Assembly (NCBI GenBank): GCA_046292385.1
Contig: JBKBRF010000047.1
Span: forward strand, 1-51,742
Length of the DNA: 51,742 bases
Direction of reading: 5' to 3'
Source of the DNA: Armatimonadota bacterium
Lineage (GTDB): Bacteria > Armatimonadota > SYMT01
The position numbers and the translations under genes are program-made. The notes beneath the pieces were generated by a model. It saw nothing but the letters and a program-made list of their open reading frames with translations, did no database searches and was not told the DNA's origin. Shown here in pieces: positions 9,198 through 51,445 of this stretch. Position 1 is the stretch's first letter, and each line of letters begins with the position of its first letter.

Positions 9198-9742
9198 TGG
9201 GAGAGTGGGCGCAAGGGAGAGTGGGAGACACTATCCTCGATGGCAGTGACGCATTTTCGAGAGCTTCGCGTCTATCAGCTTGCCTTCGAAGCTGCGATGG
9301 AGATCTACACCCTTTCGAAGGTCTGGCCGAAGGAAGAGCGCTGGTCGCTGACCGATCAGATTCGGCGTTCGTCGAGGTCGATCTGTGCGTCGGTTGCTGA
9401 AGCTTGGAAGAAGCGTCGCTACGCAGCGCATTTTGTGAGCAAGCTATCCGATGCAGACAGCGAGGCAGCAGAGACCCAGGCGTGGCTGGACTTCGCGCGG
9501 CAGTGCGGGTATTTGACGGAGACCGAGCACGGACGCCTCAACGAGAAATACCAGATCATCAGCGGTGGACTGGTCAAGATGATGGCCGAGCCGGAGAAAT
9601 GGTGTTTCCAGGCTGACCGGATCCGAGAGCCCCCGACCGCATACCTGATTGACGATGGCTCGACGGAGGTGGATGGAGATGAGTGAGAAAGGTCCGCCAT
9701 TCGATCTCGGCTCTCCCACTCCCCCTTGCGCCCACTCTCCCA
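9198..9742. repeat. 31-bp inverted repeat (1 mismatch) of GA-rich octamers bracketing the four-helix-bundle gene
   Basis: 9198-9228 TGGGAGAGTGGGCGCAAGGGAGAGTGGGAGA versus 9712-9742, whose reverse complement is TGGGAGAGTGGGCGCAAGGGGGAGTGGGAGA. Confidence 0.9.
9240..9686 (+). CDS. Four helix bundle protein (23S rRNA IVS protein / TIGR02436-like)
   Basis: FRELRVYQ, WPKEERWSLTDQIRRSSRSICASVAEA, FVSKLSDADSEAAETQAWL; visibly lower GC than its neighbours. Confidence 0.92.
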   Translation: MAVTHFRELRVYQLAFEAAMEIYTLSKVWPKEERWSLTDQIRRSSRSICASVAEAWKKRRYAAHFVSKLSDADSEAAETQAWLDFARQCGYLTETEHGRLNEKYQIISGGLVKMMAEPEKWCFQADRIREPPTAYLIDDGSTEVDGDE

Positions 9743-9820
9743 TTCCAAAACCGTAAGCACATCTTTACCGGTCGTCTCGGTATCCGAGAACGATAGCAAG
9801 CAGATCGCGGGAGAAGCACC

Positions 9821-11305
9821 ATGCACCCGATGTTGAAAGAATGGGTCCGGCTGGAGACCCGGCGGCAGTTCCTGAGCCGCGGCGCCAACGCCCTGGGGTG
9901 GGCGGCGGCGAGCGCGCTGGCGATGGGCGAGGCGCAGGCGGCCGTGCAGAAGACGCCGACGCCCGGCGCGGCGGCGGCGGGCGCGACTCCCTTCTCGCTG
10001 CAGCACTTCGCCGGCAAGGCGAAGCACGTCATCTACCTGCACATGGTCGGCGGTCCGCCGCAGATGGACCTGTACGACTACAAGCCGCAGATGCAGGAGT
10101 GGTTCGACAAGGACCTGCCCGAGTCGATCCGCATGGGGCAGCGCCTCACGACCATGACCTCCGGCCAGGCGCGCTTCCCCATCGCGCCTTCCAAGTACCA
10201 GTTCGCCCAGCACGGCAAGAGCGGGATGTGGGTTTCCGAGCTGCTGCCGTGGACCGCCAAGATGGTCGACGACATGTGCTTCATCCGGAGCATGCACACG
10301 GAGGCGATCAACCACGAGCCGGCGATCACCTACATGCAGACCGGCAACCAGATCACGGGGCGGCCCTGCCTCGGAGCGTGGGCATCCTACGGTCTCGGGT
10401 CGCTGAACCAGAACCTGCCGACCTTCGTGGTGCTGGTGGCCCGCCCCTCCAACCAGGAGCAGGTGCAGGCGATCTCCGCCCGGCTCTGGTCGTCCGGCTA
10501 CCTGCCGGGAGAGCATGCCGGCGTCTCGTTCCGCTCCGCGGGCGACCCGATCCTCTACATCAACAACCCGCCCGGCGTGCCGACCGAAGTGCGGCGCAAG
10601 ACGCTCGACGGCCTGAAGCGGCTGAATGAGATCACGCACAAGATCGTCGGCGACCCGGAGACCCACACGCGCATCCAGCAGTATGAGCTGGCGTTCCGGA
10701 TGCAGGCCTCCGTACCGGAGCTGACCAACATCTCCGGCGAGCCGGAGAGCACCTACCAGCTCTACGGCGACGAGGCAAAGAACCCCGGCACCTTCGCCCA
10801 CTCGGCGCTGCTGGCCCGGCGGATGGTGGAGCGCGGCGTCCGGTTCGTCCAGATCTACCACAACAACTGGGACACGCACGGCAACGTCGCCGGCCGCCTG
10901 CCGAGCCAGTGCAAAGACGTGGACCAGCCGTGCTACGGCCTGGTGCAGGACCTGAAGCAGCGCGGCCTGCTGGACGACACGCTCATTATCTGGGGCGGCG
11001 AGTTCGGCCGGACGATCTACTCGCAGGGCGGGCTCAGTAAGGACAACTACGGGCGCGACCATCATCCCCGCTGCTACACGATGTGGATGGCGGGCGGCGG
11101 CTCGAGGCCAGGGGTCGTCCACGGAGAGACGGACGAGTTCTCGTACAACATCACCAAGGATCCGGTCCATATCCACGATTTCCACGCGACGGTCCTGCAC
11201 CTGCTCGGCTTCGACCACGAGCGGTTCACCTTCCGGCACCAGGGCCTGGACCAGAAGCTGACCGGCGTCGAGCCGGCCACGCTGATCAAGGACCTGATCG
11301 CATAA
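9821..11305 (+). CDS. DUF1501 family protein (sulfatase/alkaline-phosphatase-like)
   Basis: Twin-Arg [47 protein letters not shown]. Confidence 0.92.
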   Translation: MHPMLKEWVRLETRRQFLSRGANALGWAAASALAMGEAQAAVQKTPTPGAAAAGATPFSLQHFAGKAKHVIYLHMVGGPPQMDLYDYKPQMQEWFDKDLPESIRMGQRLTTMTSGQARFPIAPSKYQFAQHGKSGMWVSELLPWTAKMVDDMCFIRSMHTEAINHEPAITYMQTGNQITGRPCLGAWASYGLGSLNQNLPTFVVLVARPSNQEQVQAISARLWSSGYLPGEHAGVSFRSAGDPILYINNPPGVPTEVRRKTLDGLKRLNEITHKIVGDPETHTRIQQYELAFRMQASVPELTNISGEPESTYQLYGDEAKNPGTFAHSALLARRMVERGVRFVQIYHNNWDTHGNVAGRLPSQCKDVDQPCYGLVQDLKQRGLLDDTLIIWGGEFGRTIYSQGGLSKDNYGRDHHPRCYTMWMAGGGSRPGVVHGETDEFSYNITKDPVHIHDFHATVLHLLGFDHERFTFRHQGLDQKLTGVEPATLIKDLIA

Positions 11306-11414
11306 GGGCGGGGCGGCACTACGGACGAAACTTGTGGGTCCGAATTCGGACAAATCCCGTCGGAGACGCGGAGCTCGCCGATAGGCGGCCTCGACGTCGC
11401 AGGACGAGTGGGGC

Positions 11415-11469
11415 CTCAGCCCGCGCAGGCGGGCTTCGCTCTGAGTAGCCTCGACTTCAGTCGCAGGCG
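11415..11469 (+). repeat. REP-like double-hairpin repeat (GTAG type)
   Basis: AGCCCGC-GCAG-GCGGGCT...GTAG-CCTCGACTTCAGTCGCAGG; near-identical inverted copy at 41041-41092. Confidence 0.85.
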
Positions 11470-11509
11470 AGTTGCCGGAAGCACGAACCTTCGCGTCGAG
11501 GAGAATGCC

Positions 11510-12997
11510 TTGAATCCCGAGCTCGAGAAGTATCTGCACCTGTCGCGGCGGCAGTTCTTTGGCCGAACCGCCTCCGGGATCGGCATCGCCGCGCTCGCCT
11601 CGCTGCTTCAGGAAGAGGGCCTCGCCGCGCCCGCAAAGCCGGCGAAGAAGACCGGCCCCGCCGTGAAGCCGGCCGCGGCGGCGGGGCCTCGCACCCACCT
11701 CCCGGCGAAGGCGAAGCGGGTGATCGTGCTCTGGCAGGGCGGCGCGCCCTCGCACGTCGACCTCTTCGACCATAAGCCCGGCCTTGACGCCCTCCGGGGG
11801 GAGCAGGTGCCGGAGTCGGTGCGCTCCAAGGTCCGCCTCTCCACCATGACCGCGGGGCAGCAGAGCCATCCGGTCCTGCCGGCTCAGAAGCCGTTCAAGC
11901 AGTATGGGAAGAGCGGCATGTGGCTCTCCGAGCTGCTGCCGCACACCGGGTCGATCGCGGACGATCTCTGCCTGATCAACTCGATGCACACCGAGGCGGT
12001 GAACCACGCGCCGGGTGTGACCTTCATGCTCACCGGCAGCCAGATTCCCGGCCGGCCGAGCATGGGCGCGTGGGCGACCTACGGCCTCGGGAGCATGACG
12101 AGCGACCTGCCCTCGTTCTGCGTGATGACCTCCACCGACGTCGGCCGCACCTGCGGGCAGCTCTTCTACGACTACTACTGGGGCAGCGGCTTCCTGCCCT
12201 CCAAGTTCCAGGGCGTCCGCTTCCGCAGCGACGGCGAGCCGGTCCCCTATCTCGCCACTCCGGAAGGCATGCCGCAGGCGCTGCGCCGGGGCGTGCTGGA
12301 CGATATCGCCGCGCTCAACAAGCGGCGGCTGCAGGACTACGGCGACCCGGAGATCGAGACGCGGATCACCCAGTACGAGCTCGCCTACCGGATGCAGGCC
12401 TCCGTGCCGGAGCTGCTCGACATCTCCACCGAGACCAAGCAGACGCTGGAGATGTACGGGCCGGACGTGGAACGGCCCGGCTCCTACGCGCGCAACTGCC
12501 TCCTGGCGCGGCGGCTGGTGGAGCGGGGCGTCCGGTTCGTGCAGCTCATGCACTCCGGCTGGGACCAGCACAGCAACTGGAGCACGCAGCTCGCGGTCCA
12601 GTGCCGCGACACCGACCAGCCGAGCGCGGCGCTGGTGAAAGACCTGAAGCAGCGCGGCCTGCTGGAAGACACGATCGTCCTCTGGGCGAGCGAGTTCGGG
12701 CGGACCGTTTTCGTGCAGGGCGACATCACCAAGCCGGCCGGGCACGGGCGCGACCACCTCGGCTCCGTCTACAGCATGTGGGCGGCGGGCGGCGGCTTCA
12801 AGGGCGGCACCGTCTACGGCGAGAGCGACGAGTTCTGCTACAACGTCGCCCGCGACGGGGTGCACGTCCACGACCTGCAGGCGACGATCCTGAACCAGCT
12901 CGGGCTGGATCACACCCGGCTCACCTACGAGTACCAGGGGCGGAACTTCCGCCTGACGGATGTATTCGGCAATGTCGTGAAAGGGCTCCTGGCCTGA
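11510..12997 (+). CDS. DUF1501 family protein
   Basis: Probable TTG start at 11510 after GAGGAG; SRRQFF; GGAPSHVDLFDHKP; WDQH; EFGRT; GRDH. Confidence 0.9.
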   Translation: MNPELEKYLHLSRRQFFGRTASGIGIAALASLLQEEGLAAPAKPAKKTGPAVKPAAAAGPRTHLPAKAKRVIVLWQGGAPSHVDLFDHKPGLDALRGEQVPESVRSKVRLSTMTAGQQSHPVLPAQKPFKQYGKSGMWLSELLPHTGSIADDLCLINSMHTEAVNHAPGVTFMLTGSQIPGRPSMGAWATYGLGSMTSDLPSFCVMTSTDVGRTCGQLFYDYYWGSGFLPSKFQGVRFRSDGEPVPYLATPEGMPQALRRGVLDDIAALNKRRLQDYGDPEIETRITQYELAYRMQASVPELLDISTETKQTLEMYGPDVERPGSYARNCLLARRLVERGVRFVQLMHSGWDQHSNWSTQLAVQCRDTDQPSAALVKDLKQRGLLEDTIVLWASEFGRTVFVQGDITKPAGHGRDHLGSVYSMWAAGGGFKGGTVYGESDEFCYNVARDGVHVHDLQATILNQLGLDHTRLTYEYQGRNFRLTDVFGNVVKGLLA

Positions 12998-13024
12998 CGA
13001 TCGACGCCGGCGGAGGAGCCCCGG

Positions 13025-15625
13025 ATGCGGCGCGTCCCACGACCTCTTCGAGCAGCACTCCCGCTTCTGGCGGGGGTTCCGCTGCTTGCCGCGCTGGTCG
13101 GCGCCGCGGGGGCCGAGCCCGCGCGCCCCGGAAAGCCGGACCTCCCCACCCAGGCACGCGCGGTGCTCGCAAAGCACTGCGTCTCCTGTCACGGTACCGC
13201 ACAGCAGGCGGGCGGGCTGCGCCTCGATAGCCGCGCGGCCGTCCTCGCCGGCGGCGGCTCCGGCCAGCCGGCGATCGTCCCCGGCAGCAGCGCCGGGAGC
13301 CGGCTGATCCGGCTGGTCACCGGCACCAGGCCCGGGGAGCGAATGCCGCCGCAGGGCCCGCGCCTCTCCCCAGCGGAGGTGGCGACGCTCCGCCGCTGGA
13401 TCGATGACGGCGCCGCGTGGCCGGAGACGAAGGCCGCACCGGCTGCCGCGGCAAAGAAATGGTGGGCCTTCCGCCCGCTCCAGGTGGTGAAGCCGCCGGT
13501 GCCGAAGCGCTCCGGCTGGGCGGTGAACGCCGTCGACCGCTTCCTCCTGGCGGCGCAGGAGGCGAAGGGGCTCTCCCCCACCCCGCCCGTCGACCGCCGC
13601 CGGCTGATCCGCCGCCTCTACTTCGACCTGACCGGCCTTCCCCCCACGCCGGAAGAGGTCGAGGCGTTCGTGGCGGATCCCGCGCCGGATGCCTACGAGA
13701 AGCGGGTCGACCGGCTCCTCGCCTCGCCGCACTTCGGGGAGCGCTGGGCGCGTCACTGGCTCGACGTCGCCCGCTACGCGGACAGCAACGGGCAGGAGGG
13801 CGACCAGGACCGCCCCACCGCCTATCACTACCGCGACTTCGTCATTCGCGCCTTCAACGACGACCTTCCGTACGACACGTTCGTGAAGTGGCAGCTCGCC
13901 GGCGACGAATACGAGCCGGACAATCCGCTCGCCCTCTCCGCCACCGGGTTCATCACCGCCGGCCCGCACACCGTGCTGAACGTCCCGATGGAAGAGGAGA
14001 AGATCCGCAACCGGCTCAACGAGCTGGACGATCAGCTCTCCACCACCGGCTCCGCGTTCCTGGCGCTGACGGTCGGCTGCGCGCGGTGTCACGACCACAA
14101 GTTCGATCCCATCCCCACGCGCGACTACTACCGGCTGCAGGCCGCCTTCAACGGCGGCGACCGGGCGGAGGTGCCGCTGCTTCCGCGGGAGGAGCTGGCG
14201 CGGCGGCGGGAGGCGGAACGGGCGTGGAACGACCGGCTGAAAGGCGCGCGCCAGGAGCTGGAAGGCTGGCGCGCGGAGAAGCTGAAGCCGCTCGAGGCCC
14301 GGGTGCGGAAGGCGAAGATCGACGCGCTGCCGATCGACGATCCGGACAAGGCGCTCCTGCTGCGCGACCCGGAGAGCCCGCGCGCGAAGGAGCTGGCGAA
14401 GCAGCAGGCGCGGCGGCTGCAGGTCGACGACCGCGACTACCATCCGCTCCTCACCCGTCCGGATCGCGAGCGGCTCGAGGCGCTCACCGCGGCGGTAACG
14501 CGCTTCGAAGGCCAGAAGCCGGAGCCGGTCCCCACGGCGCTGGCGATGGCCGACTTCGGCCCGACGCCGCGGGAGACATGGCTGCTCGACCGCGGCGACC
14601 TGCGGCTGAAGAAGGAGCGGGTGGAGCTCGGCTTCCTGAGCGCGCTTACCAGCAAGAGCGCCGCCGAGTACTGGACCGCCGCGCGCGCCGCCGGGACCCG
14701 GGCCGACACCACCTACCAGCGCCGGGCGCTGGCGGAGTGGATGACCGACCTGGACCACGGTGCCGGCGCGCTGCTCGCGCGAGTCATCGTGAACCGGCTC
14801 TGGCAGCACCACTTCGGCGAGGGGCTGGTGCGCACCGTCAACGACTTCGGCCTGCAGGGGGAGCCGCCGAGCCACCCGGAGCTGCTGGAGTGGCTGGCCT
14901 CGGAGCTGGTCCGCGGCGGGTGGAAGCTGAAGCGGATCCACCGGATGCTGGTGACCAGCGCTGCCTACCGGCAGGGCACCGAGCTCGACGTCCGCAAGGC
15001 GAAGATCGACCCGGAGAACCGGCTGCTCTGGCGGCGGCGCCCGCACCGGCTGGAGGCGGAGATCTACCGGGACGCCATGCTGGCGGTCAGCGGCACGCTA
15101 AACCCCGAGGCGTTCGGGCCGGCGGTCCGCCCGCCGATCCCCGCCGAGGCGATCCAGGCGCGCAACCTGAAGGACCCCTACCCGGCCAACCTGAAGGACA
15201 CGCCGGAGACCCGCCGCCGGAGCCTCTACCTCTTCCACAAGCGGGTGGTGCAGTATCCATTCCTGCAGGTCTTCGACGCACCGGACGCCGCCGCGAGCTG
15301 CGGACGGCGGAGCGTGACGACGGTCGCCCCGCAGGCGCTGGCGGTGCTTAACGAGCCGTTCGTGCGGCTCCGCGCGATCGAGCTCGGCGAGCGGCTCTTG
15401 CAAGAAGCCGGAGAAGCGCCTCGGGCACAGGTCGACCGCGCCTACCACCACGCTCTCGGCCGGGCGCCATCGCCCGCCGAGCTGGAGGCCTCCGCCGCGT
15501 TCCTCCGGGCACAGGAAGCGCGGCGGCGCGGCCGGGGAGAAACTCCGGAAGAAGCGAAGCGGCTGGCGCTGGCCGACTTCGCGCAGGTGATCTTCGGATT
15601 GAACGAGTTTGTCTATGTCGACTAA
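13025..15625 (+). CDS. PSD1/planctomycete cytochrome c protein (DUF1549+DUF1553)
   Basis: Signal peptide; [44 protein letters not shown]; ends NEFVYVD. Confidence 0.92.
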   Translation: MRRVPRPLRAALPLLAGVPLLAALVGAAGAEPARPGKPDLPTQARAVLAKHCVSCHGTAQQAGGLRLDSRAAVLAGGGSGQPAIVPGSSAGSRLIRLVTGTRPGERMPPQGPRLSPAEVATLRRWIDDGAAWPETKAAPAAAAKKWWAFRPLQVVKPPVPKRSGWAVNAVDRFLLAAQEAKGLSPTPPVDRRRLIRRLYFDLTGLPPTPEEVEAFVADPAPDAYEKRVDRLLASPHFGERWARHWLDVARYADSNGQEGDQDRPTAYHYRDFVIRAFNDDLPYDTFVKWQLAGDEYEPDNPLALSATGFITAGPHTVLNVPMEEEKIRNRLNELDDQLSTTGSAFLALTVGCARCHDHKFDPIPTRDYYRLQAAFNGGDRAEVPLLPREELARRREAERAWNDRLKGARQELEGWRAEKLKPLEARVRKAKIDALPIDDPDKALLLRDPESPRAKELAKQQARRLQVDDRDYHPLLTRPDRERLEALTAAVTRFEGQKPEPVPTALAMADFGPTPRETWLLDRGDLRLKKERVELGFLSALTSKSAAEYWTAARAAGTRADTTYQRRALAEWMTDLDHGAGALLARVIVNRLWQHHFGEGLVRTVNDFGLQGEPPSHPELLEWLASELVRGGWKLKRIHRMLVTSAAYRQGTELDVRKAKIDPENRLLWRRRPHRLEAEIYRDAMLAVSGTLNPEAFGPAVRPPIPAEAIQARNLKDPYPANLKDTPETRRRSLYLFHKRVVQYPFLQVFDAPDAAASCGRRSVTTVAPQALAVLNEPFVRLRAIELGERLLQEAGEAPRAQVDRAYHHALGRAPSPAELEASAAFLRAQEARRRGRGETPEEAKRLALADFAQVIFGLNEFVYVD

Positions 15626-18675: not shown

Positions 18676-18708
18676 CAGCGTCGGCCGCGCAGCCCTTCTC
18701 GATCAGCG

Positions 18709-20895: not shown

Positions 20896-22380
20896 ATGAA
20901 ATCACGGTGGCTTTTCGGAGCGGCGGCCGTTGCGGGGGCTGCGGCGGGGGCGGCAGTGGTGCGGGCGCGCCGCAGCGCGTGGGAGTCGGCGGAGCGGGCG
21001 CGGCGGCTGCAGCAGGCCAAGGCGGAGCACGGACGCAACATCGTCATCCTCGGCGCGGGCTTCGCGGGGATCAACGCGGCCGACTGCCTGGTGAAGAAGC
21101 TGCCGGCGGAGAGCGGCTGGAAGGTGACGCTGGTCGACCGCCACAACTACCACCTCTTCACGCCGCTGCTCTACCACGCCGCCTCCGGCCTGGTCGACCC
21201 GTCGAGCATCCTCTTCCCGGTGCGGCGGCTCACCGACCGTCCCCACTTCCAGTTCCGGGAGGCCTCGGTCCAGGCGATCGACATGCACCGGCAGGTGGTG
21301 CACCTGGATGACGGTCCGCTGGCGTACGACCAGCTCGTGATCGCCCTGGGAAGCGTGACCAACTTCTTCGGCTCGGAAGAGAAGCTCCCCGGAGCGCTGA
21401 AGCTGAAGACGCTGGCGGACTCGATCATGATCCGCAACCACGTGATCGACGCCTTCGAGAAGGCGGAGGTGGAGACCGACCCGGAGATCCGGCGGCGGCA
21501 CCTGACGTTCGTGGTGGTCGGCGGCGGCGCGACCGGCGTAGAGCTGATCGGCTCGATCCGGGGGTTGGTGCGGGGGACCCTCGCCGAGCAATACCGCCGC
21601 ATCGATCCGTCCGAAGTGAAGCTGATCCTGCTGGAGGCGATGCCGGAGATCCTGCCGGGCATCAGCCGGGAGCTGGCGGAGCACGCGCTGCAACGGATGC
21701 GAGATCTGGAGATCGACGTGCGGCTGGAGACGAAGGTCGAGGCGGTCGAGGACGGCTGCGTCGTGCTCGCCTCCGGGGAGAGCATCCCCGCCGATACGGT
21801 GGTCTGGGCCGCCGGCGTGCGGCCGGCGCCCCTGGCCGCCCGGCTGGAGTTGCCGAAGGACCGGAAGGGCCGGCTGCAGGTGGACGACTTTCTCCAGGTG
21901 GAAGGGGTTCCGAACGTCTACGCGCTGGGAGACATCGCCGCGGTGACCGACCCGCAGACGGAGAAGACGCTCCCGCCGACCGCGGCCGTGGCGGTGCAGG
22001 AAGGAAAGGCGCTGGCGGAGATCCTGGTCGCCCGGCTGGAGAACCGCGCGCCGAAGCCGTTCCGCTACGAGCACCGCGGCGAGCTGATCTCTCTCGGCCG
22101 CCACGAAGCGGTGGCGGAGGTGATGGGGGTCCGGTTTACCGGCTTCCCGGCCTGGCTGATGTGGCGGGCGTTCTACCTGAGCCAGCTCATGGGCTTCAAG
22201 AACCAGCTCGCGGTGGCGCTCGACTGGAGCTTCGCCTACGCCTACCAGCGCGACGCCGTGCGGCTCGATCTGCCGATGCGGCGGGCGCTCACGGACGAAG
22301 GGGAAGCGGCCCTGGACGAGCAGCGAGACCGGTTGGAGCGCGCGGAGAAGGAGCCGGAAGCGGCAGGCTCGGCACACTAG
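20896..22380 (+). CDS. ndh: Type II NADH:quinone oxidoreductase (NDH-2 family)
   Basis: ILGAGFAG; HLFTPLLY; VVGGGATGVE; VVWAAGV; YALGD; AWLMWRAFYL. Confidence 0.88.
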   Translation: MKSRWLFGAAAVAGAAAGAAVVRARRSAWESAERARRLQQAKAEHGRNIVILGAGFAGINAADCLVKKLPAESGWKVTLVDRHNYHLFTPLLYHAASGLVDPSSILFPVRRLTDRPHFQFREASVQAIDMHRQVVHLDDGPLAYDQLVIALGSVTNFFGSEEKLPGALKLKTLADSIMIRNHVIDAFEKAEVETDPEIRRRHLTFVVVGGGATGVELIGSIRGLVRGTLAEQYRRIDPSEVKLILLEAMPEILPGISRELAEHALQRMRDLEIDVRLETKVEAVEDGCVVLASGESIPADTVVWAAGVRPAPLAARLELPKDRKGRLQVDDFLQVEGVPNVYALGDIAAVTDPQTEKTLPPTAAVAVQEGKALAEILVARLENRAPKPFRYEHRGELISLGRHEAVAEVMGVRFTGFPAWLMWRAFYLSQLMGFKNQLAVALDWSFAYAYQRDAVRLDLPMRRALTDEGEAALDEQRDRLERAEKEPEAAGSAH

Positions 22381-22399: not shown

Positions 22400-22700
22400 G
22401 GATGGGTGGATTTGGCAAGGGAGAGTGGGCGAGAGGGCGAGCTTGAGAAGCTGCTTACGGGTACGGTTCTCCCACTCCCCCACTCCCACTCAGGGCCGGA
22501 AGCCCCGCCTTCATCCCTGTCAGCGCGCGTGGAGCGAGCTCTCGGGAACGTGCCGGAAACACCCGGTCGCCAGCGAGCAGGAGCAAGACTAGGAGCAGGA
22601 GCAGGATCTGCCGTGTACGGAGGGTTCGGCTTCATCCCTCATCCCTCATCCTTCATCCCTCGGCCTCCCCCACTCTCCCTTGCTCCCACTCCAACCCATC
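22400..22700. repeat. Intergenic repeat-armed hairpin containing composite module copy 2
   Basis: 22415-22429 GCAAGGGAGAGTGGG is perfectly complementary to 22669-22683 and identical to 9211-9225; internal (YTCATCC)x4 heptamers at 22631-22658. Confidence 0.8.
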
Positions 22701-29728: not shown

Positions 29729-29933
29729 TCCGAACGAACGCGAAGGCGCGAAGTTTGCGCGAAGGACGCGAAGAGGAGCCTAAGAAAGCAATCAGGCTCT
29801 CCGCCGTAGGGGGTTCGCAGCCCGCGGAGGCGGGCTTTGCTCTATGTAGCGCCGAGTTCACTCGCGCGCGGGTCTGCGAATCCTGACCGACTTCGCGTTC
29901 TTCCCTCCCTTCGCGCCTTCGCGTTCGTTCGGA
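29729..29933. repeat. Perfect 25-bp inverted repeat of CGCGAAG units enclosing a REP copy (29818-29869)
   Basis: TCCGAACGAACGCGAAGGCGCGAAG (29729-29753) is the reverse complement of 29909-29933. Confidence 0.9.
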
Positions 29934-36665: not shown

Positions 36666-36801
36666 CGGAGCAGCCGCGAGCGCCGGCGCTCGTCGCGGAC
36701 TCTCAACGTCGCGCGCCGCCACCCGCGCTGAAACGAGCGGCCCCCGCGGGTGTCTGAAAGCGGCGGCGGGCTTTCCACCGCCGTCGGCTGTGGCACTGGC
36801 T

Positions 36802-39570
36802 ATGCGTTTTCGATCCGGACTGATCGTCGTCTCTCTCTGTGGGATCTTCGGCCTCGGCGCCGCGCACGCGCTCCCGATGCCCAAGCGATCGGGCTCGAAG
36901 CGGCCCGTCGCCCGGGCGAAGCCGGTCGCGAAGGCGGCCGCCGCCAAACCGGCGCCGCCGGCGCTCAGTTTCGAGCGCGACGTCCGCCCGGTCCTGAAGG
37001 CCTACTGCATCGACTGCCACGGCGGTGAGACGACCGAGGCGAAGCTCGACCTCCGGCTGAAGCGCTTCCTCGCGAAGGGCGGCCACAGCGGACCGGTGAT
37101 CGTGGCGCGAAAGCCGTCGGAGAGCCTGCTGATCAAGCGGATGAAGAGCGGGACGATGCCCCCGGTCGGCAAGAAGGTGCCGCCGGAGCAGATCGCCATC
37201 GTGGAGCGCTGGATCGCCGCCGGGGCGCCGACCGCGCGCACCGAGCCGCTCCAGCTTCCGCCCGGGATCGACATCACCCCGGAAGACCGCGCCTACTGGT
37301 TCTTCCAGCCGGTCCGCCGCCCCACCCCACCCGCGTTCAAGCCGGCCGACCGGGTCCGCACGCCGATCGACGCCTTCGTCCTGCAGCGGCTGCGCGCGAA
37401 AGGGCTCAGCTTCGCGCCGGACGCCGACCGGCGCACGCTGATCCGCCGCGCCACGCTCGACCTGACCGGTCTCGCGCCCACCCCGGCGGAAGTCGACGCA
37501 TTCGTCGGCGATGCCCGCCCGGACGCCTACGAGCGGTTGATCGACCGGCTTCTCGCCTCCCCGCAGTACGGCGAGCGCTGGGGCCGGCACTGGCTCGACG
37601 TGGCGGGCTACGCCGACTCGGAAGGCGACGGCAGCGCCGATTCCCCGCGCCCGTATGCCTACAAGTACCGCGACTACGTGATCCGCTCCCTCAACGCGGA
37701 CAAGCCGTTCGACCAGTTCCTCACCGAGCAGTTGGCGGGTGACGAGCTGGTTCCCCGCCCCTGGACCAACCTGAAGCCGGACCAGATCGAGAAGCTCACC
37801 GCCACCGGCTTCCTCCGCACCGCCGCGCACGTGGGGGGAGACCCCGCTTCCGCCAACCAGGTAGTCGGCGACACGCTCAAGATCGTCAGCTCCAGCCTGC
37901 TCGGGCTCAGCGTCGGCTGCGCGCAGTGTCACGACCACCGCTACGATCCGATCCCGCAGGTCGACTACTTCCGCCTCCGCGCGCTCTTCGAGCCGGCGCT
38001 CAACCCGGCGGCGTGGCGCGGCCCGGCACAGCGGCGCCTCTCCCTCTACACCGATGAAGAGCGCGCCCGCGCCGCCGCGGTGGAGGCCGAAGTGCAGAAG
38101 CTCCAGCAGGCCTACAACGAAAAGCAGGCGCGCCTGGTCGAAACGGCGTTCGAAGCGGAGCTCCAGAAGTTTCCGGCGGAGCAGCGGGAGGCGCTCCGGG
38201 CCGCGGTCAAGACCCCGGACGACCAGCGCACCGCGGAGCAGAAACAGCTCGTCGCAACCAATCCGAAGCTCCTGATCAGCCCCGGCGTGCTCTACCAGTA
38301 CAACCAGGCCGCGGCGGACGAGCTGACCCGGGCCATGGAGGCGATCAACAAGAAGCGCGGTGAGCGTCCGCCGGAAGAATTCGTCAGCGTGCTGGACGAG
38401 GTTCCGGGGCAGGTCCCGACGACCCACCTCTTCCACCGCGGCGACTACCGCGCGCCGAAGGAAGCGGTCACTCCCGGTGACCTGACCATCGCCGCGCCGG
38501 ATGGCGAGCGCCTGGAGATCCCCGCCGACGACGCGAGCCTGCCGACCACCGGCCGCCGTCTCGCCTGGGCGAAGCACCTGACCAGCGGGAAGCACCCACT
38601 TGTCGGCCGCGTCCTGGTCAACCGCGTCTGGCTCCACCACTTCGGGCGCGGCATCGTCGACACCCCCGGCGAGTTCGGTAAGCTCGGCGCGCTGCCCACG
38701 CACCCCGAGCTACTCGATTACCTGGCCTCTCTCTTCACGGAGCGAGCTGCTTCTCACGGAATTGACAGAGAGACAGAGCGACAGAGTGAGGGGGAGAAGT
38801 CTTCAGCGGCAGCGGAGGCTGCCTCCCGGTCGGAGCTCTCGCCGACTCTCCGTCCCTCTGTCTCTCCGTCGAAGCTCGAAGGGCTGGGCTGGAGCTTGAA
38901 GGCGCTGCACAAGACGATCATGCTTTCCACCGTCTACCGCCAGTCTTCGGTCGCGAGTGCGGCGGCGCGGAAGATCGATACGGACGGGTCGCTCTACAGC
39001 CGCTTCTCGGTCCGCCGCCTCGACGCCGAGTCGCTGCGGGACCGGATGCTGCAGGCGGCGGGCCGGCTCGACCCGGCGCAGTTCGGACCGCCGGTGCCGG
39101 TGGTGGAGGATGCGGTCGGCCAGGTCGCCGCGAAGGACGACACGCCGCGGCGGAGCGTCTACCTCCAGGTGCGGCGCTCGCAGCCGATCTCGTTCCTGGT
39201 GGCGTTCGACGCGCCGGTGATGGCGCTGAACTGCGAGCGCCGGCAGACGACCAACTCCGCTCCGCAGGCGCTGATGCTGATGAACAGCGACTTCACCCTG
39301 GCGCAGGCAAAGCACTTCGCGCAGCGGCTCCGGAAAGAGGCGCCGGAAGGCCCGGAGCGGCAGGTCGCGCTGGCCTGGAGCCTCGCCTTCTGCCGGCCGG
39401 TCACGGCGGAGGAGACGGCAGCCTCGGTCGCCTATCTCCAGCGGCAGCAAGAGCTTCACAAAGCCGCGCCTGGGGGCGAGAAGCTGATGCCGGAGCAGAT
39501 TCAGCTCTCCGCACTCACCAACTTCTGTCAGCAGTTGCTCAGCTCCAACGAGTTCCTCTATGTCGACTGA
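36802..39570 (+). CDS. PSD1/planctomycete cytochrome c protein with in-frame hairpin insertion
   Basis: CIDCH; GERWGRHWLDVAGYADS; CAQCHDHRYDP; PTHPELLDYLA, then a ~47-aa insert, then GWSLK; ends NEFLYVD. Confidence 0.9.
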   Translation: MRFRSGLIVVSLCGIFGLGAAHALPMPKRSGSKRPVARAKPVAKAAAAKPAPPALSFERDVRPVLKAYCIDCHGGETTEAKLDLRLKRFLAKGGHSGPVIVARKPSESLLIKRMKSGTMPPVGKKVPPEQIAIVERWIAAGAPTARTEPLQLPPGIDITPEDRAYWFFQPVRRPTPPAFKPADRVRTPIDAFVLQRLRAKGLSFAPDADRRTLIRRATLDLTGLAPTPAEVDAFVGDARPDAYERLIDRLLASPQYGERWGRHWLDVAGYADSEGDGSADSPRPYAYKYRDYVIRSLNADKPFDQFLTEQLAGDELVPRPWTNLKPDQIEKLTATGFLRTAAHVGGDPASANQVVGDTLKIVSSSLLGLSVGCAQCHDHRYDPIPQVDYFRLRALFEPALNPAAWRGPAQRRLSLYTDEERARAAAVEAEVQKLQQAYNEKQARLVETAFEAELQKFPAEQREALRAAVKTPDDQRTAEQKQLVATNPKLLISPGVLYQYNQAAADELTRAMEAINKKRGERPPEEFVSVLDEVPGQVPTTHLFHRGDYRAPKEAVTPGDLTIAAPDGERLEIPADDASLPTTGRRLAWAKHLTSGKHPLVGRVLVNRVWLHHFGRGIVDTPGEFGKLGALPTHPELLDYLASLFTERAASHGIDRETERQSEGEKSSAAAEAASRSELSPTLRPSVSPSKLEGLGWSLKALHKTIMLSTVYRQSSVASAAARKIDTDGSLYSRFSVRRLDAESLRDRMLQAAGRLDPAQFGPPVPVVEDAVGQVAAKDDTPRRSVYLQVRRSQPISFLVAFDAPVMALNCERRQTTNSAPQALMLMNSDFTLAQAKHFAQRLRKEAPEGPERQVALAWSLAFCRPVTAEETAASVAYLQRQQELHKAAPGGEKLMPEQIQLSALTNFCQQLLSSNEFLYVD
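38762..38872. repeat. Intragenic in-frame octamer-repeat hairpin
   Basis: Left arm TTGACAGAGAGACAGAGCGACAGAGTG; right arm CTCTCCGTCCCTCTGTCTCTCCGTCGA (38846-38872). Confidence 0.85.
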
Positions 39571-41040: not shown

Positions 41041-41233
41041 CGCCTGCGACTGAAGTCGAGGCTACAGAAAGCGAAGCCCGCCTGCGCGGGCTAAGACTTC
41101 CATCAGCCATCAGCTCCGATCGATGCGGTCACCAGGACGCTGTCGAGGGCTTCAGAAGGCTGGAGGCCGTTTCGACGCTCAGCCCGCGCAGGCGGGCTTC
41201 GCCCTGAGTAGCGTGCGACTTCCAGTCGCACGC
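41041..41233. repeat. Inverted REP doublet (REPIN/BIME-like) between convergent genes
   Basis: Minus-strand copy at 41041-41092 and plus-strand copy at 41178-41233 of AGCCCGCGCAGGCGGGCTTCGC..GTAG..CGACT..AGTCG. Confidence 0.85.
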
Positions 41234-41274: not shown

Positions 41275-41715
41275 CTACTCTTCCGGAGACTGGTGCAGCA
41301 CCTGCATCAAGGCGTCGTGAGCCGACGCCAGCTCCGCCACGGCCGTTTCGACGTGCGCCATCTCGTCGGGCGGGAGAAGTCGGCGCATCGGCTCGCAGAT
41401 GAAGGCGGTGCAGCCGAAGGGGCGGAGGTCGCGCGGAAAGCGGCAGCCGGTCGCGCCGAGGTAGTCGCACGGCTCCGCGGCCTCCTCGAGGCCGGCGCGG
41501 GCGGTGGAAAGGATCTCTCCCGCCAGCTCCGGCGCGGCCGAGACGGGAGCGACCTTGAAGCCCAGCTCCTCGACCAGGATCAGGTCTACGGGGCGGATGC
41601 GCGCCGGCTTCCGGCAGCACGGCGTGGCGCAGGCGGCGCAGTGCCGGGCGGTAAACGGGTCAAACAGCGCCCGCAGCCGAAGCTGCGCCCGCCGGTAGCG
41701 CTCCAGAGGGTTCAT
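41275..41715 (-). CDS. Cys-cluster protein (CxxCxxxCC...C...C...C; possible Zn/Fe-S binding, YkgJ-like)
   Basis: HCAACATPCC, PCDYLGATGC, RPFGCTAFIC. Confidence 0.72.
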   Translation of the reverse strand: MNPLERYRRAQLRLRALFDPFTARHCAACATPCCRKPARIRPVDLILVEELGFKVAPVSAAPELAGEILSTARAGLEEAAEPCDYLGATGCRFPRDLRPFGCTAFICEPMRRLLPPDEMAHVETAVAELASAHDALMQVLHQSPEE

Positions 41716-41720
41716 TCTTT

Positions 41721-41898
41721 GGGGCTAGGGGCTAGGGTATAGGGTTTAGGGTGTAAAGGTCCGGTCGGCGCAGTTCATCCAAACCGGTACCGATCGCCGC
41801 AGGGGATCGGTACCGAGCAGAGGGAAGTGCAGGCGTGGCCGTCCACGGATGGCGCACCCCTGCACCCAAAGACCTAGACCCTAGACCCTAGACCCTAG
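41721..41898. repeat. Heptamer-armed hairpin (TAGGGNN / GACCCTA) with internal palindrome
   Basis: GGGGCTAGGGGCTAGGGTATAGGGTTTAGGG (41721-41751) versus tandem GACCCTA units ending at about 41897; internal GGTACCGATC...GATCGGTACC. Confidence 0.82.
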
Positions 41899-42419
41899 AA
41901 TTGAGACGCGGTGCTCCGCAGCCAGGTGTTGATCTGGCGGCAGAGGTCGTCGCCTTCTTTGCCCAGGATGCGGCGCAACTCGCGCTGGTCGACCTTGAGC
42001 AGCGAGTTCCGGGTCTTCTTCACCTCGTGGCGTCCGCGTGCCAGGCGCGCCTCGCGAATCAGTTTCTGGGTGTTGGCCTGCAAGCGCTCCCGCTCTTCCC
42101 GCTTCCGCTCTCGCCGCGGGTGGTAGGTCCGCGGACCGGTGTCCTGCACGGCGTTCTCTTCGATGAAACGCTTCACGTGCTCCCGCGCGAAGATGTTGTC
42201 CGGACGGCTCTCCTCCTCGTTCAGGTCCCGCAGCACTTCCGCGCTGGACCGGAGGCTGGCGCCGATGAAGGCGGCCGGCATGCCGCGCTCCACCAGGTTT
42301 GCGGCCATGTCCCGCAGGCGAGACTGGTCTTCCGCCGCCATCCGCCCCCAGGCGGGGACGTAGCTCTCGATCATCCGGTCCAGATCCTCAGGTACCCGTC
42401 CGCAGTCTTCGTTTCGCAT
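41895..42419 (-). CDS. Hypothetical protein
   Basis: RBS GGAAGGGAG; charged helical sequence; no recognised family. Confidence 0.62.
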   Translation of the reverse strand: MRNEDCGRVPEDLDRMIESYVPAWGRMAAEDQSRLRDMAANLVERGMPAAFIGASLRSSAEVLRDLNEEESRPDNIFAREHVKRFIEENAVQDTGPRTYHPRRERKREERERLQANTQKLIREARLARGRHEVKKTRNSLLKVDQRELRRILGKEGDDLCRQINTWLRSTASQF

Positions 42420-42502
42420 CCAGATCTCCCTTCCGAATACCACTGAGCCGACACTGCATCAATCGAGCGGACACTGTTCGGTAGCTACGCTCTGGGCGTT
42501 TC

Positions 42503-44168: not shown

Positions 44169-44182
44169 GAATGTACGGCGGC

Positions 44183-45898: not shown

Positions 45899-45919
45899 CC
45901 TGATACGGCAGCACAGCTC

Positions 45920-45953
45920 AACCCCCGGGGGCAGATGCTTCCCGGGGGTTTTT
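45920..45953 (+). terminator. Intrinsic terminator
   Basis: AACCCCCGGG...CCCGGGGGTT followed by TTT. Confidence 0.8.
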
Positions 45954-46017
45954 GATTCGCGGTAGACCTGCGCCGCACTCGTGGAAGCGCAGGACTCGCT
46001 CGCCAGGATGAACGCGG

Positions 46018-46728: not shown

Positions 46729-46757
46729 GCCGCGAACTGCAGAGGAGCTCCGCTCGA

Positions 46758-47246: not shown

Positions 47247-47264
47247 CGGCGAGGACCGCTCCCC

Positions 47265-48713
47265 TCAGGCGAGGACCTCTTTGACCACGCTGCCGCCGAA
47301 ATCGGTGAGGCGCTCGTGGCGGCCGTTGTGGAGCACGGTGAGCCGCATGTGGTCGAGCCCCAGCAGGTGCAGGATCGTCGCGTGGAAGTCGCGGGGGTGG
47401 ATCGGGTTCTCGATCGCGCGGTAGCCGATCTCGTCGGTTGCGCCGACCACCGTCCCGCCCTTCACGCCGCCGCCGGCCATCCACATGGTAAAGCCGTACG
47501 GGTTGTGGTCTCGCCCCTTCCCGTTCTGGGTCACCGGCGTGCGGCCGAACTCCCCGCCCCAGATCACCAGCGTCTCGTCCAGGAGCCCGCGGCGCTTCAG
47601 GTCCTTCAGCAGCGCCGCGACGGGTCGGTCGGTCATGCCGCACATCTTGTTGTGGTTCTCGACCATGTTGTCGTGCGCGTCCCACTGCACGCTCACCGGC
47701 CCGCCGCCGGAGTAAAGCTGGACGAAGCGGACGCCCCGCTCCACCAGCCGCCGGGCGAGCAGGCAGCGCGTGCCGAACTCGGTGGTCCGCGGGTCGTCCA
47801 GCCCGTAGAGCGCGCGGGTCTCCGCCGTCTCCCGGCTCAGGTCGACCGCCTCCGACGCGTGCTGCTGCATCCGGAACGCCAGCTCGTAGGAGGCGATTCG
47901 CGCGGAGAGGTCCTGGCCGTCCTCCGTCAGCGTCGCCTCGTTCACTTCGCGCAGGTAATCGAGGATCCGCCGCTGCTGGCGCGGCGCAACTCCCGGCGGC
48001 GGCTTCAGGTGCAGGATCGGCTTCGGACCGGGGCGGAGCTGGGTCCCCTGGAACGCCGGCGGCAGATAGCCGGAGTCCCACATCGGCGCGCCGCCCTCCG
48101 GCAGGCCCTCCGGCTGCGTGAGCACGCAGAAAGCCGGCAGGTTCTGCCCCACGCTGCCGAGGCCGTAGGCGACCCAGCTCCCGAGCGAGGGATGACCGGA
48201 GATGGTGCGGCCGGACATGAACTGGTACATCGCCGGCGCGTGGACGAAGCTGTCCGAGACGCAGGAGCGTAGCACGCAGAGATCGTCCGCGCACTGCGCT
48301 ACGTTCGGGAGCAGCTCGCTCACCTCCAGCCCGGACCGGCCGTGCTTCCCGAACTTCCACTGGCTCCGCATCAGCGGGGTTCCCGCCTGGATGAACTGGC
48401 TCTTGATCTCCCCGAAGCTCGGCGGAAGCGGCTGCCCGTCCAGGCGCTCGAGCTCCGGCTTCGGGTCGAACGTCTCGAGGTGGCTCGGTCCCCCGACCAT
48501 GAAGAGAAAGATCACGCTCTTGGCGCGAGGCTGGAAATGCGGCTGCCGCGGCGCAAGCGGGTTCGCCCGGGCCGGGGCCGGCGCGGCGAGGCCGTCTTCC
48601 GCCAGCAGGGTGGAGAGCGCGAGCGCGCCCAGCCCGCCGCCCGCGCGGAAGAGCAGGTCGCGGCGAGTCATCGCCGCCGGAAGATGGGAGCTACGTCCGG
48701 GCATCGATCGCAT
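47265..48713 (-). CDS. DUF1501 family protein
   Basis: [39 protein letters not shown]; start 2 nt after the PSD1 stop. Confidence 0.92.
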
Positions 48714-48715
48714 CC

Positions 48716-51445
48716 TCACTTCAGGTAGACGAACCCGTTCAGGTTCAGCGCCGCCAGGCTGAGATCGACCCACGCCGCCGCCTCGGCCGGCTCGACGCCC
48801 GCCGGCACCGGCTCCGGCAAGCGCAGCTCGCCGCCCTCGGCCGCGCGGTCTCGGAGCAGTGCCACCTGGTCCCTCAGGAACCGTTCGGTAGCGTCCCGCT
48901 CCTGCACTGTCGGGCCGCGGCCCTGCGTCACCAGGAACAGCCGTCGGATGCGCGCGCTCACGTCTCGCTGCTGCTCCCGCAGGAGGCGCCCCGCCAGCCG
49001 GGCGCTCTGCTGGGCCATGAAGTCGCTGTTCATCAGCGTCAGCGCCTGGAGGGCGTGGACGCTCTGGTTGCGGGCGCCGCACGACGTCATCATGTCGGGC
49101 GCGTCGAAGACCACGAAAAGCGGCAGGCGGACGTTCCGCTTCCGCAGCAGGTAGAGGCTGCGGCGGTCGTGCTCCCGCGGGTCGGGCGTGACCGGCCACA
49201 GGTTGTCCGGCTCCCCCTCCGTAAAGATCGTGTCGTACACCTCCGGCTCCAGCGGCACCCGCACGGAGGGCCCGCCCGGCCGGACGTTCAAGCTGCCGGA
49301 CGCCGTCAGCACCGCGTCCCGCACCGCTTCCGCGTCGAGCCGCCGGCGGTTCTGCCGCCAGAGCAGCTCGTTCGCCGGATCGAGCTTCGCCTTCCGCGCG
49401 TCCCCATCGCTCGCCTGCCGGTAAGTGCTGCTGGTCACCACCAGCCGGACCAGCCGCTTGAGGCTCCAGCCCAATCCACTCGACGGAGAGACAGAGGGAC
49501 GGAGAGACAGAGAGATCTGTGACCGCAAGGCGGGCTTTGCTTCGCGAGAGCCGGCGGTTCGGACTCTCTCCGTCCCTCTGTCTCTCCGTCTCTCCGTCGC
49601 CTCCGCAGGAGCGGGAGCCGGTGCCGTAAACGAGGAGGCCAGGTAATCAAGAAGTTCGCGATGGGTCGGCGTCGCGCCGTTGCGGCCGAAGTCGTTGGGG
49701 GTGGCGACGATGCCGCGGCCGAAGAGCGTGTGCCAGACGCGGTTGACTAGCACGCGGCCGGTAAGCGGGTGGTCCGGCCGGGTCAGCCAGCGGGCCAGCG
49801 CCAGGCGATCGTTGCCGGGAGCCGGCTCGCCGCAGGCCGCTGCATCCGAGGCGTCCTTCACACGCAGGGCGGCGGGGAAGCCGGGCTGGACCGGGGCCCC
49901 GAGGGAGTGCGGATCGCCGCGCTCCAGCACGTGGACCGCCGGCCGGGGCTGCAGACCGTCGGTGACGCCCGGCGCGACCGGCAGCGGCTCCGGCTCCTCG
50001 AAGGCGAGGACGTGCATCCGGGCACGCAGCGCGGATCGGCGCGCGCGGTCTTCCGGCGAGAGTGCGGCCACCACCTCCGTCCACTCCAGGTTGAGCTGCA
50101 CCTGCGCCGCGGCCGCCTGCTTCCGCTCTTCCGGGGTGCGGTCCTTGGCGGGGATCTCCAGCACGCGCCGGTCTTCCGGATCGAGGCGCTCCAGCTTCTG
50201 CCGGCGCAGGTGCTCCCGGTACGGCTTCTCCAGCTCTGCGATCTCCGCGCGGATCGGCTTCAGCTTCTCCTGATGAGCGGCGGCTGCCGCCTGGTACGCC
50301 GCTTCGTCCGCCTCCGTGGCCACGGAAAGCTCGTGGTTGATCGTGGGCGCGAAGAACGCCTGGAGGCGGTAATAGTCGGCCTGGCTGACCGGGTCGTACT
50401 TGTGGTCGTGGCAGCGCGCGCAGCCGATCGTCAGCCCCATCACCGCGGAGCCGACTCCTGCCACCGCCTCGGTGAGCCACTCCTGCCGGTTGACCGCCTC
50501 GTCCTGGTTGCCGCCGACCACGTGCTGCGGACCGGCGCGCAGGAAGCCGGTCGCCACCCGCAGATCGAAGCTCTTCGGATCGAGCAGGTCCCCGGCGATC
50601 TGCTCCGTGAGGAAGCGATCGTAGGGGCGGTCCTCGTTCAGGCTGCGGACCACGTAATCCCGGTAGCGCCAGGCCTGCGGGCGGTCGCCGTCCAGCTCGA
50701 AGCCGTTCGTCTCCCCGAACCGCACCACGTCGAGCCAGTGCTGTGCCCAGCGCTCCCCGAACCGCGGCGAGGCGAGGAGCCGGTCGACGGCCCGCTCGTA
50801 GGCGTCCGGCCGGCGGTCGCCCAGAAACCCGGCGATCTCGGCCGTCGTGGGGGGCAGTCCGGTGAGGTCGAGGGTCACCCGGCGAAGCAGCGTGAGGCGA
50901 TCGGCTTCCGGGCTCGGCTTCAGCCCCCGCGCCTCCAGTCGCGCCAGCACGAAGGCGTCGACCGGATTGCGCGCCCAGCCCTGCTGCCGCGGACGAGGAA
51001 CCGCGGGGCGGACGGGAGACTGAAAGGCCCAGTGTCCCTGCGGTTCTTTCGGGGCAGCACCCGCTCCGGACGGGTACGGCGCGCCGGCGTCAATCCACCG
51101 GCGGAGTAGGGCGACTTCCGCCGCGGCGAGCGGGGCGCCCTGGGGCATCGCCGGCTCGCCGGCGCCGGAGACGAGAAGAATCAGGAGGCTGCGCTTACTG
51201 TCCCGCGCCACGAGCGCGGCGCCGCGTCCGCCGCCCAGCAGGGCGGCCTCGCGGGTGCGGAGATCGAGCCCGCCCTGCTTCTTGTCGCCGTGGCAGTTGA
51301 AGCAGCGCCGCTCCAGCACCCCGAAAGCGCCGCGTGCCAGCTCACCGGGCGCCGCCTCCGCCAGGGCCAGCCGCCCCAGCACCCCGGCGCCCGCGAGCAA
51401 CACGACCGGGAGCGCGGCCCGCCTGATCGACCCGAATACGCCCAC
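48716..51445 (-). CDS. PSD1/planctomycete cytochrome c protein with in-frame hairpin insertion
   Basis: [41 protein letters not shown], then a ~49-aa insert, then GWSLK. Confidence 0.9.
49480..49599. repeat. Intragenic in-frame octamer-repeat hairpin with a REP fragment in the loop
   Basis: 49482-49507 GACGGAGAGACAGAGGGACGGAGAGA is perfectly complementary to 49565-49590; the loop contains CCGCAAGGCGGGCTTTGCT. Confidence 0.9.

Follow-up and report, generated by a model that had tools for sequence, protein, structure and literature searches.

The described elements closest to the structures reported here are the intervening sequences (IVS) of 23S rRNA. In Coxiella burnetii, the 23S IVS carries an S23p open reading frame (ORF) preceded by three tandem GACAGAT heptamers, and RNase III excises this IVS; the same study records an old idea by which the ORF served mobility and also cites ORF-bearing 23S IVS in Leptospira and others (PMC4990558, available in part). 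The present analysis concerns contig JBKBRF010000047.1 of an Armatimonadota bacterium (lineage SYMT01, assembly GCA_046292385.1), taken entire as a window of 51.7 kb (51,742 nucleotides, nt), and within it the element 9198-9742, in which a four-helix-bundle gene stands between two inverted arrays of short tandem units. It is well supported that this cassette is built like an ORF-bearing 23S rRNA IVS moved into an mRNA operon. The likeness extends to an S23p/PF05635 ORF in the loop of a long stem, heptamers before the ORF, the G-rich strand first and no mobility gene (accessible portion of PMC4990558). The host, on the other hand, is an mRNA operon or a coding frame instead of a helix of 23S rRNA; besides units of 7 nt there are units of 8-10 nt, the cassettes coexist with a large gene-less population, and RNase III excision is only a candidate here.

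The arrays themselves also have described counterparts. Rehm et al. (2015) reported transcribed GGGAATC arrays in Xanthomonas, mostly of four units, with 70 and 75 convergent pairs; the arrays are placed between aligned genes and have their G-rich strand on the coding strand, at most 50 bp from the stop or overlapping it (PMC4692102, available in part). GGGGAYT repeats in Nostoc are mentioned and the cyanobacterial short tandemly repeated repetitive (STRR) sequences are cited there, the arrays are interpreted as quadruplex repeats, a gene inside them is not named, and the terms 'four-helix' and 'intervening' have no occurrence in the accessible portion of that paper (PMC4692102). The hairpins described below share with the Xanthomonas type, as far as that portion documents it, tandem units of about 7 nt, about four units per array, convergent pairs, co-directional gaps and the G-rich strand past the stop. 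They differ by their many unit families, mostly non-quadruplex, and because some have gene cargo and some lie in frame. In Beggiatoaceae, TAACTGA repeats closing all three frames are described (PMC4679880, available in part). The initial annotation had proposed an undescribed system; with inverted G-rich heptamers (PMC4692102) and Coxiella heptamers by an S23p ORF (PMC4990558) already in print in the portions available, that term is only half justified. A literature search combining the protein-family names with heptameric repeats, supplements excluded, returned no paper linking the gene to the arrays.

Two further systems are relevant. Repetitive extragenic palindromic (REP) sequences and the hairpin-forming REP doublets (REPIN) are associated with REP-associated tyrosine transposases (RAYT), where a single-copy gene is bracketed by hairpin repeats that are also scattered gene-less between genes. 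Here the gene encodes a four-helix bundle instead of a Y1 transposase, and the genome's Y1 genes bear plain palindromes. Rickettsia palindromic elements are in-frame palindromic inserts translated as an extra protein loop. The in-frame inserts at 38764 and 49481 of the window are unrelated to them in sequence, have tandem-unit arms and occupy one fixed site of a paralog family.

The genome (7.04 Mb in 91 contigs, GC content 68.9%, 98.45% complete) contributes a window dense in PSCyt1-PSCyt2-PSD1 genes, each with a DUF1501 gene downstream. The cassette is located within such a pair. The 5' arm (9195-9228), formed by about four octamer units of the GAGTGGGA / GCAAGGGA type, starts 7-10 nt past the TAG of the PSCyt/PSD1 gene 5897-9187; it is followed by the four-helix-bundle gene (9240-9686, plus strand) and by the 3' arm (9712-9745), a C-rich complement placed 78 nt upstream of the DUF1501 gene 9821-11305. 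The two arms are 34 nt long and 94% complementary, and in the RNA fold of the cassette they close a stem of about 33 bp. The GC content of the element is 0.59, against 0.689 for the genome.

The IVS-like nature attributed to the gene by the initial annotation is confirmed by profile matches to PF05635 (102.6 bits, cut-off 33.8) and TIGR02436 (92.6 bits, cut-off 24). The protein also matches the PDB entries 2rld and 2gsc (E 1e-7), both deposited with 5 chains. Avd, the accessory protein of diversity-generating retroelements, belongs to the same four-helix-bundle fold family, whereas the Avd profiles stay below their cut-offs here (bAvd 32.5 bits against 40, NF033474 27.6 bits against 80), and the genome, at 98.45% completeness, gave no match to the reverse transcriptase profile RVT_1. 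Three of the seven aligned proteins (C47, C34 and C7; window 9590-9686) have in common a tail C-terminal to the bundle, with the pattern R-I/V-x-E-P-x-x-x-Y.

Eight PF05635 matches are present in the genome, and every one of them lies between periodic inverted arrays, seven according to the scan and the eighth (C7) by eye; the C7 cassette has the order left arm, 96-nt loop, right arm, gene, second right arm. All eight are flanked by protein-coding genes and thus not set in a 23S rRNA helix, and no 23S gene is present in the assembly. Four are placed between a PSCyt/PSD1 gene and its DUF1501 partner. In co-directional gaps the gene is always on the host strand (6/6), and the cassette extends from the upstream stop (-3 to +10 nt) nearly to the next start, so filling the gap. 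The gene-bearing elements have a GC content of 58-63%. Identity to the window protein is only 22-29%, so that the eight proteins are not recent duplicates. The C10 copy is frameshifted near its end; the closest pair (C49 and C25) has a ratio of nonsynonymous to synonymous substitution rates (dN/dS) of 0.11 with dS saturated, and the protein is, to judge from its sequences, under purifying selection. The four-helix-bundle gene is the only recurring cargo gene among the hairpins. Other cargo genes in large loops were considered and discarded: none recurs, and the large 'loops' with real genes correspond to two neighbouring hairpins.

The cassette is not confined to this genome. A search of species-representative genomes with a four-protein alignment, which samples one branch of the family, gave 485 relatives, of which 80, from other phyla, were kept. 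A periodic inverted array was found on both sides of the gene in 52 of the 80, always with period 7, so that the tie of such arms to four-helix-bundle genes, which the initial annotation had left to be checked, is supported both within this genome and elsewhere. The first arm of these 52 cassettes has more G than C in 49 cases, more C than G in two and equal numbers in one; the left arm ends a median 28.5 nt before the protein match and the right arm begins a median 11 nt past the stop. A quick tree of 73 relatives and seven of the genome's own proteins, built on few columns and weakly supported, indicates that the unit types track protein clades and that these clades mostly track taxonomy. 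One Actinomycetota cassette falls within an Acidobacteriota protein clade and carries the unit of that clade, a hint that gene and arms may travel together.

The other five hairpins of the window carry no gene. The initial annotation had listed six inverted-repeat pairs with arms of short tandem units; all six were verified, with units of 7-9 nt, and the G-rich arm comes first in each of them. A scan of the window (arms no shorter than 20 nt, complementarity from 85% upwards, spacing up to 1.5 kb) gave nine rows, equivalent to seven loci, against a mean of 0.33 in 30 order-2 Markov simulations. Tandem Repeats Finder (TRF) assigned period 8 to the arrays at 9195, 22418, 38764 and 49482 and period 7 to those at 41721 and 41873. 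At 29738 the period is 8-9, with indels, and this value replaces the CGCGAAG unit formerly assigned to the pair 29729/29933.

The short octamer hairpin 22415-22492 (arms 22415-22441 and 22468-22492) begins 35 nt past the TAG of gene 20896-22380. Downstream lies a composite tail (22575-22691), in which GAGCAG hexamers (22575-22606) are followed by TCATCCC heptamers that lack a partner arm (22632-22661) and then by an outer 3' arm (22665-22691). The outer arms of this structure, 22415-22433 and 22665-22683, are 19 nt long and 95% complementary, and the inner partner is 22468-22490. A composite module of this kind occurs twice, at 5660-5770 and 22565-22661, with GAGCAA/GAGCAG hexamers, CGGAGGGTTCGG and then pyrimidine-rich heptamers; the module ends in AGCCTTT units in one case and in TCATCCC units in the other, and the two outer arrays do not pair with one another.

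The hairpin 29729-29933 occupies a convergent intergenic gap. It begins immediately 3' of a TGA, only 4 nt separate its far end from the convergent gene's stop, and its arms (29729-29753 and 29909-29933; 25 nt, 100% complementary) are followed by a second layer (29757-29774 and 29899-29916) and by a GC-rich palindrome in the loop. The heptamer hairpin 41712-41904, with GGGGCTA / GGGTNTA units and arms at 41725-41750 and 41873-41898 (26 nt, 88%), constitutes the entire spacer of two minus-strand genes: the TAG of gene 41895-42443 is supplied by the last heptamer unit, and the other end is 5 nt from the next start. An Rfam search of the hairpins gave no matching family. A GC-rich palindrome of the GAAGCCCGCC...GCGGGC type forms an inverted pair 3' of a DUF1501 gene (41061-41212) and occurs also at 11417-11440; it scores at the level of Rfam CRISPR-DR28 three times, no array is formed, and it looks like a dispersed REP-like element rather than CRISPR. 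Similar palindromes are found inside the loops of the 29729 and 49481 hairpins. A Cobalamin riboswitch is located at 4519-4702 on the minus strand (100.6 bits, gathering score 31.5).

The same design is found throughout the genome. The scan gave 526 inverted repeats, homopolymer runs excluded, of which 170 have periodic arms (period score of at least 0.65). After merging overlapping rows and dropping GC-triplet-like units and loops longer than 700 nt, about 145 tandem-armed hairpins remained; these counts are lower bounds, as the scan requires an exact 11-nt seed. Each element is a pair of inverted arrays of about 3-5 tandem units of 6-10 nt, with a median paired arm of 27 nt, equivalent to 3.6 units, and a median loop of 96 nt. 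Unit families are many, for example CGTATTG (the largest, with about 45 rows), AGGGTNT, AAAGGCT, GGGATGA, GAGTGGGA, GACRGAGA and CAGGTTG. The six window structures are best explained as members of one resident population of hairpin-forming insertions, one gene-bearing and five gene-less. Stacked forms exist at C62:11429-12007 and C1:31307-31639: one sets four identical left arms, with 139-nt spacing, against one right arm, and the other a long AAAGGCT run against one right arm. An inner-stem motif, TCCGAAC(C)/GGTTCGGA, is placed at the loop edge of 40 of the 290 arm sides in several unrelated unit families (window example 49520-49570); its genome frequency is 0.09 per kb per strand and it reads VRTAA in the PSD1 inserts.

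The 31 copies of the CGTATTG family with loops of 85-105 nt have a median identity of 0.69 and a maximum of 0.90, and 97% of their stem cells are paired; one position is TA in 11 copies and CG in 11, a covariation. The derivation of gene-less loops from cassettes by deletion is upheld for this family only, in which the loop core of the gene-less copies is also present just 3' of the gene in the C7 cassette. The loops of the other families are mutually unlike: in three of them, 6 of 120, 1 of 28 and 11 of 78 pairs are similar.

This population calls for comparison with a partnership of the REPIN/RAYT kind, in which the four-helix-bundle protein, probably as a pentameric ring reading about 4-5 units, would be the trans factor that copies or maintains the hairpins, the gene-less ones being dependent on it. 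Several observations fit such a partnership: the flanking of all eight genes by arrays, the recurrence of all six arm types of the gene-bearing cassettes in gene-less hairpins, the core shared by the CGTATTG loops and the C7 cassette, the median arm of 3.6 units beside the five chains of 2rld and 2gsc, and the Actinomycetota cassette with the unit of its Acidobacteriota clade. To our knowledge, however, the family has no known catalytic motif. Several abundant hairpin families are also without a gene bearing their unit, the copies are old (maximum identity 0.90) and related proteins bear different units, and this explanation is considered quite unlikely.

Mobilisation by a transposase was addressed directly. 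None was found among the 32 window ORFs scanned, as the initial annotation had stated, and none with tandem-unit arms in the genome. The genome has no DDE_3 gene, its four DDE_Tnp_1 genes have other repeats or none alongside, and plain palindromes stand on both sides of the two best among its five Y1_Tnp matches; the scan lists no tandem-unit repeat beside any of the five. At C51:25500-26450, a Y1 transposase gene with its own plain palindromes lies directly 3' of a GGGATGA array that starts at the upstream stop, so that tandem-armed hairpins may have this gene as another type of cargo. The terminal inverted repeats, the small size and the intergenic dispersal of the elements would suit ordinary MITEs, the miniature transposable elements with inverted repeats, mobilised in trans by a transposase encoded elsewhere. 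The absence of DDE_3, the other repeats (or none) beside the DDE_Tnp_1 and Y1 genes, the lack of a duplication at the single junction read and the differences of arms between families, which a single transposase would not tolerate, make this origin very improbable.

The polarity of the arms is a regular property of the population. The first arm has more G than C in 136 of the 145 hairpins, more C than G in seven and equal numbers in two, while the non-periodic inverted repeats used as control are G-first in 65 cases against 51. The arm polarity, for which a genome-wide check had been proposed, is therefore non-random. The rule had been worded as 'purine/G-rich arm first': in the form 'G more than C' it holds, and 'purine first' is the weaker rule (101 against 36 hairpins). 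Since an inverted repeat reads alike on both strands, G-first polarity is a genuine two-state property. Closure of all three frames by the unit was examined as a general reason for it and the explanation was found only partly true: a mean of 1.30 frames is closed by the entering arm and 0.64 by the exiting arm, a count that took in 6 nt beyond the arm and possibly the host stop. Untranslated RNA that is C-rich and G-poor is known to load Rho. A C-rich arm emerging first would, as untranslated RNA, recruit Rho, which could account for the G-first rule. The polarity could also record the way in which the arms are made, as inverted arrays would arise automatically if both 3' ends at a break were extended one unit at a time.

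A second regularity is the relation to stop codons. Gene calls were crude (ORFs filtered by third-position GC; 4358 genes, 75% coding). By these calls the 143 merged elements lie in tandem gaps (75), convergent gaps (26) and divergent gaps (14), with nine intragenic, 16 partly overlapping a called ORF and three at contig ends; of intergenic space by length, tandem gaps make up 59%, convergent gaps 20% and divergent gaps 21%. Among the 75 elements in tandem gaps, 39 start from -9 to +10 nt relative to the upstream stop, and the distance to the next start is broad. In the window, as had been noted initially, the elements are at or just after stops or in frame: 10 nt past the stop at 9198, at the TGA at 29729, on the TAG at 41898, and in frame at 38764 and 49481. 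The host stop is often the triplet of the first unit itself (TAA in 9 of 10 for the AAAGGCT family, TAG in 11 of 12 for the AGGGTNT families). Stops adjoining elements are TAG in 33, TAA in 17 and TGA in 12 cases, against 1670, 862 and 1824 in the genome (p 0.0014), and the TAG and TAA triplets are rare within coding sequence (1.8 per kb). At the 9198 site the host stop has the same position as in five relatives, and the PSD1 genes on C25 and C49 have ordinary ends; therefore, the stops from which the arrays start are native ones, and the genes are not truncated. Stop anchoring fits integration or growth via short TAG/TAA homology, and also a later absorption of the stop into the array. Overall stop usage by the crude calls is TGA 42%, TAG 38% and TAA 20% at about 69% GC, with TAG and TAA above our expectation, and the arrays may have shaped this usage in part.

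Two of the window hairpins are placed within coding sequence. The in-frame hairpin 38764-38870 (plus strand), with GACAGAGA octamers, lies in the PSD1 domain of gene 36790-39570; its arms (38764-38797 and 38837-38870) are 34 nt long and 79% complementary, the RNA fold z-score is -3.7 and the insert is translated as DRETERQSEGE...LRPSVSPS. The second (49481-49599, minus strand), with GACGGAGA / GACAGAGG octamers, occupies the same PSD1 site of the paralog 48716-51445; its arms (49481-49515 and 49565-49599) are 35 nt long and 86% complementary with a 26-nt core at 100%, and the z-score is -5.7. Seven of the ten GACRGAGA hairpins are in PSD1-domain ORFs at one site, between HPELLDYLA plus a 7-residue linker and GLGW. 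Of 53 PSD1 loci found by tblastn, 47 were examined and 28 had a readable site: 11 with only the 7-residue linker, three with 13 residues and 14 with inserts of 54-67 residues. The second in-frame copy of the window is not among these motif-read sites, as the motif missed it. In five of the 14 inserts the right arm is a TCATCCC array that does not pair with the left arm. The GACAGAGA unit is free of stops in all six frames, and for this reason translation can pass through the GACAGAGA family and also through the C-rich strand of TCATCCC.

The identity among PSD1 inserts is 0.63, against 0.62 and 0.56 for the flanks. A recent spread was ruled out on this comparison, and the inserts, being no more alike than their flanks, are old; the two arms of each insert are nonetheless 79-100% complementary still. 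Orthologs of gene 36790-39570 have the plain 7-residue linker in G001 and G003, an unrelated 28-residue insert in G006, and in G005 GGGGCCA heptamer arms with a nested TCATCCT array.

Orthologous sites were also compared for the intergenic elements. The 9198 site is a short hairpin-free gap in G001, G002, G003, G004 and G031, which represent five genera, and in G005 it is occupied by a different hairpin that has decamer arms and no gene. The 22415 site in G005 bears a hairpin of the same octamer family directly 3' of the orthologous stop. Empty-site orthologs, which the initial annotation had recommended to look for, thus exist at the 9198 site and at the PSD1 in-frame site (G001 and G003). 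Empty, same-family and other-family sites together indicate that gain or loss of elements occurs, that an element can stay in place across genera and that one can give way to another. In public reads, pieces matching the window at more than 99% are present in three DNA runs from soil or roots and in one RNA run; the contigs built from them have a few hundred bases and break at repeats, and no empty site or RNA end was seen in them. A read joint 9228>22665 merely reflects the same-family arms.

Persistence at the 22415 site raises the question of whether the hairpins serve the host. Arrays could be structural repeats that grow by slippage in place at gene ends, for 3'-end protection, operon punctuation or G-quadruplex formation, with the small gene as a regulator using them. 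The same-family hairpin kept across genera, the age of the copies with their arms still paired, and the transcribed, stop-adjoining Xanthomonas arrays that prefer four units (accessible portion of PMC4692102) are consistent with such a role. Against it, the same unit families occur at dozens of unrelated loci, the orthologous sites are empty in most genera or occupied by another family, and the entire cassette recurs across phyla. Two specific functions were examined and rejected. As intrinsic terminators the hairpins fail on their tails, only 2 of 290 having at least five T in 10 nt, and none of the 21 terminator-like sites in 9001-49000 is a tandem-armed hairpin. G-quadruplexes fail as a general reason, since only 19 of the 145 arms qualify (four or more G3 runs); among the window arms, spaced GGG runs are present only at 9198 and 41721. 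A host-serving origin is accordingly judged improbable.

The state of the stems bears on the level at which they are maintained. Selection for folding of the sense RNA should leave more G·U than A·C mismatches. Among 91 strand-assignable elements, G·U mismatches do not outnumber A·C mismatches (38 against 52, p 0.17), and in the 52 cassettes elsewhere no G·U bias appears either (31 against 24, p 0.42). RNA-level selection on the stem was rejected, as neither set has a G·U excess, and the arms would therefore be maintained at the DNA level. A process such as correction of extruded hairpins plus slippage is inferred to keep them alike.

The reading preferred here, given about an even chance of being correct, is that of an old, near-neutral class of insertions that is insulated by design, owes its palindromic form to a DNA-level process and is probably cut by RNase III in RNA. 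The elements would be passengers that persist because their design insulates them. Ribosomes would stop at or before the stem and the insert would fold into a closed domain, so that the C-rich strand would never be unpaired in RNA and Rho would not be recruited. A stem of 25-35 bp would be cut by RNase III in transcripts, as in rRNA IVS; the RNase III gene is present in the genome. The four-helix-bundle protein would act on the arrays, and the two gene-less in-frame copies would be tolerated in a surface linker of the PSD1 proteins. The initial annotation had spoken of 'mRNA intervening sequences' that could fold out of the transcript, with the four-helix protein as binding or mobility factor. 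That view is partly supported: the IVS-like architecture in operons, the tie to the gene, the polarity, the stop anchoring, the in-frame copies, the empty sites and the lack of a transposase with such arms speak for it, whereas a G·U sign of selection on the sense RNA is missing.

The absence of G·U excess in both sets is one of several points that weigh against the passenger reading. Arm sequence differs even between fairly close proteins, and strict sequence recognition by the protein is disfavoured for this reason. The unit families that cover about one third of the hairpins have no four-helix-bundle gene bearing their unit in the genome. Within the largest family no pair of copies exceeds 90% identity, so that there is no sign of recent movement in the genome, and no target-site duplication was seen at the one junction read (9198), a weak test with nearest relatives about 80% identical. 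The closure of all three frames is restricted to some families, as the means of 1.30 and 0.64 indicate, and the single RNA run yielded nothing beyond short contigs.

Whatever the mechanism, three rules apply to it: the G-rich arm is first on both strands, the anchoring is at a stop with a matching unit, and in frame the units are stop-free and set at one fixed site. An unexplained surplus of tandem repeats of 7-8 bases is found in bacteria, frequently arranged in inverted pairs near stops. The protein of the 23S rRNA IVS is very widespread and small, its fold is solved, and we know of no function for it. A bolder proposal, to which a low probability is given, is that the four-helix-bundle (S23p/TIGR02436) proteins are the dedicated partner of widespread transposase-free hairpins, as a ring that would read 4-5 units of the folded arm and drive copying, homogenisation or processing. 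If this were true, the bacterial excess of 7-8-nt tandem repeats, the rRNA IVS and the operon and in-frame inserts would be one system, and an orphan protein family would be joined to the unexplained 7-8-base repeats.

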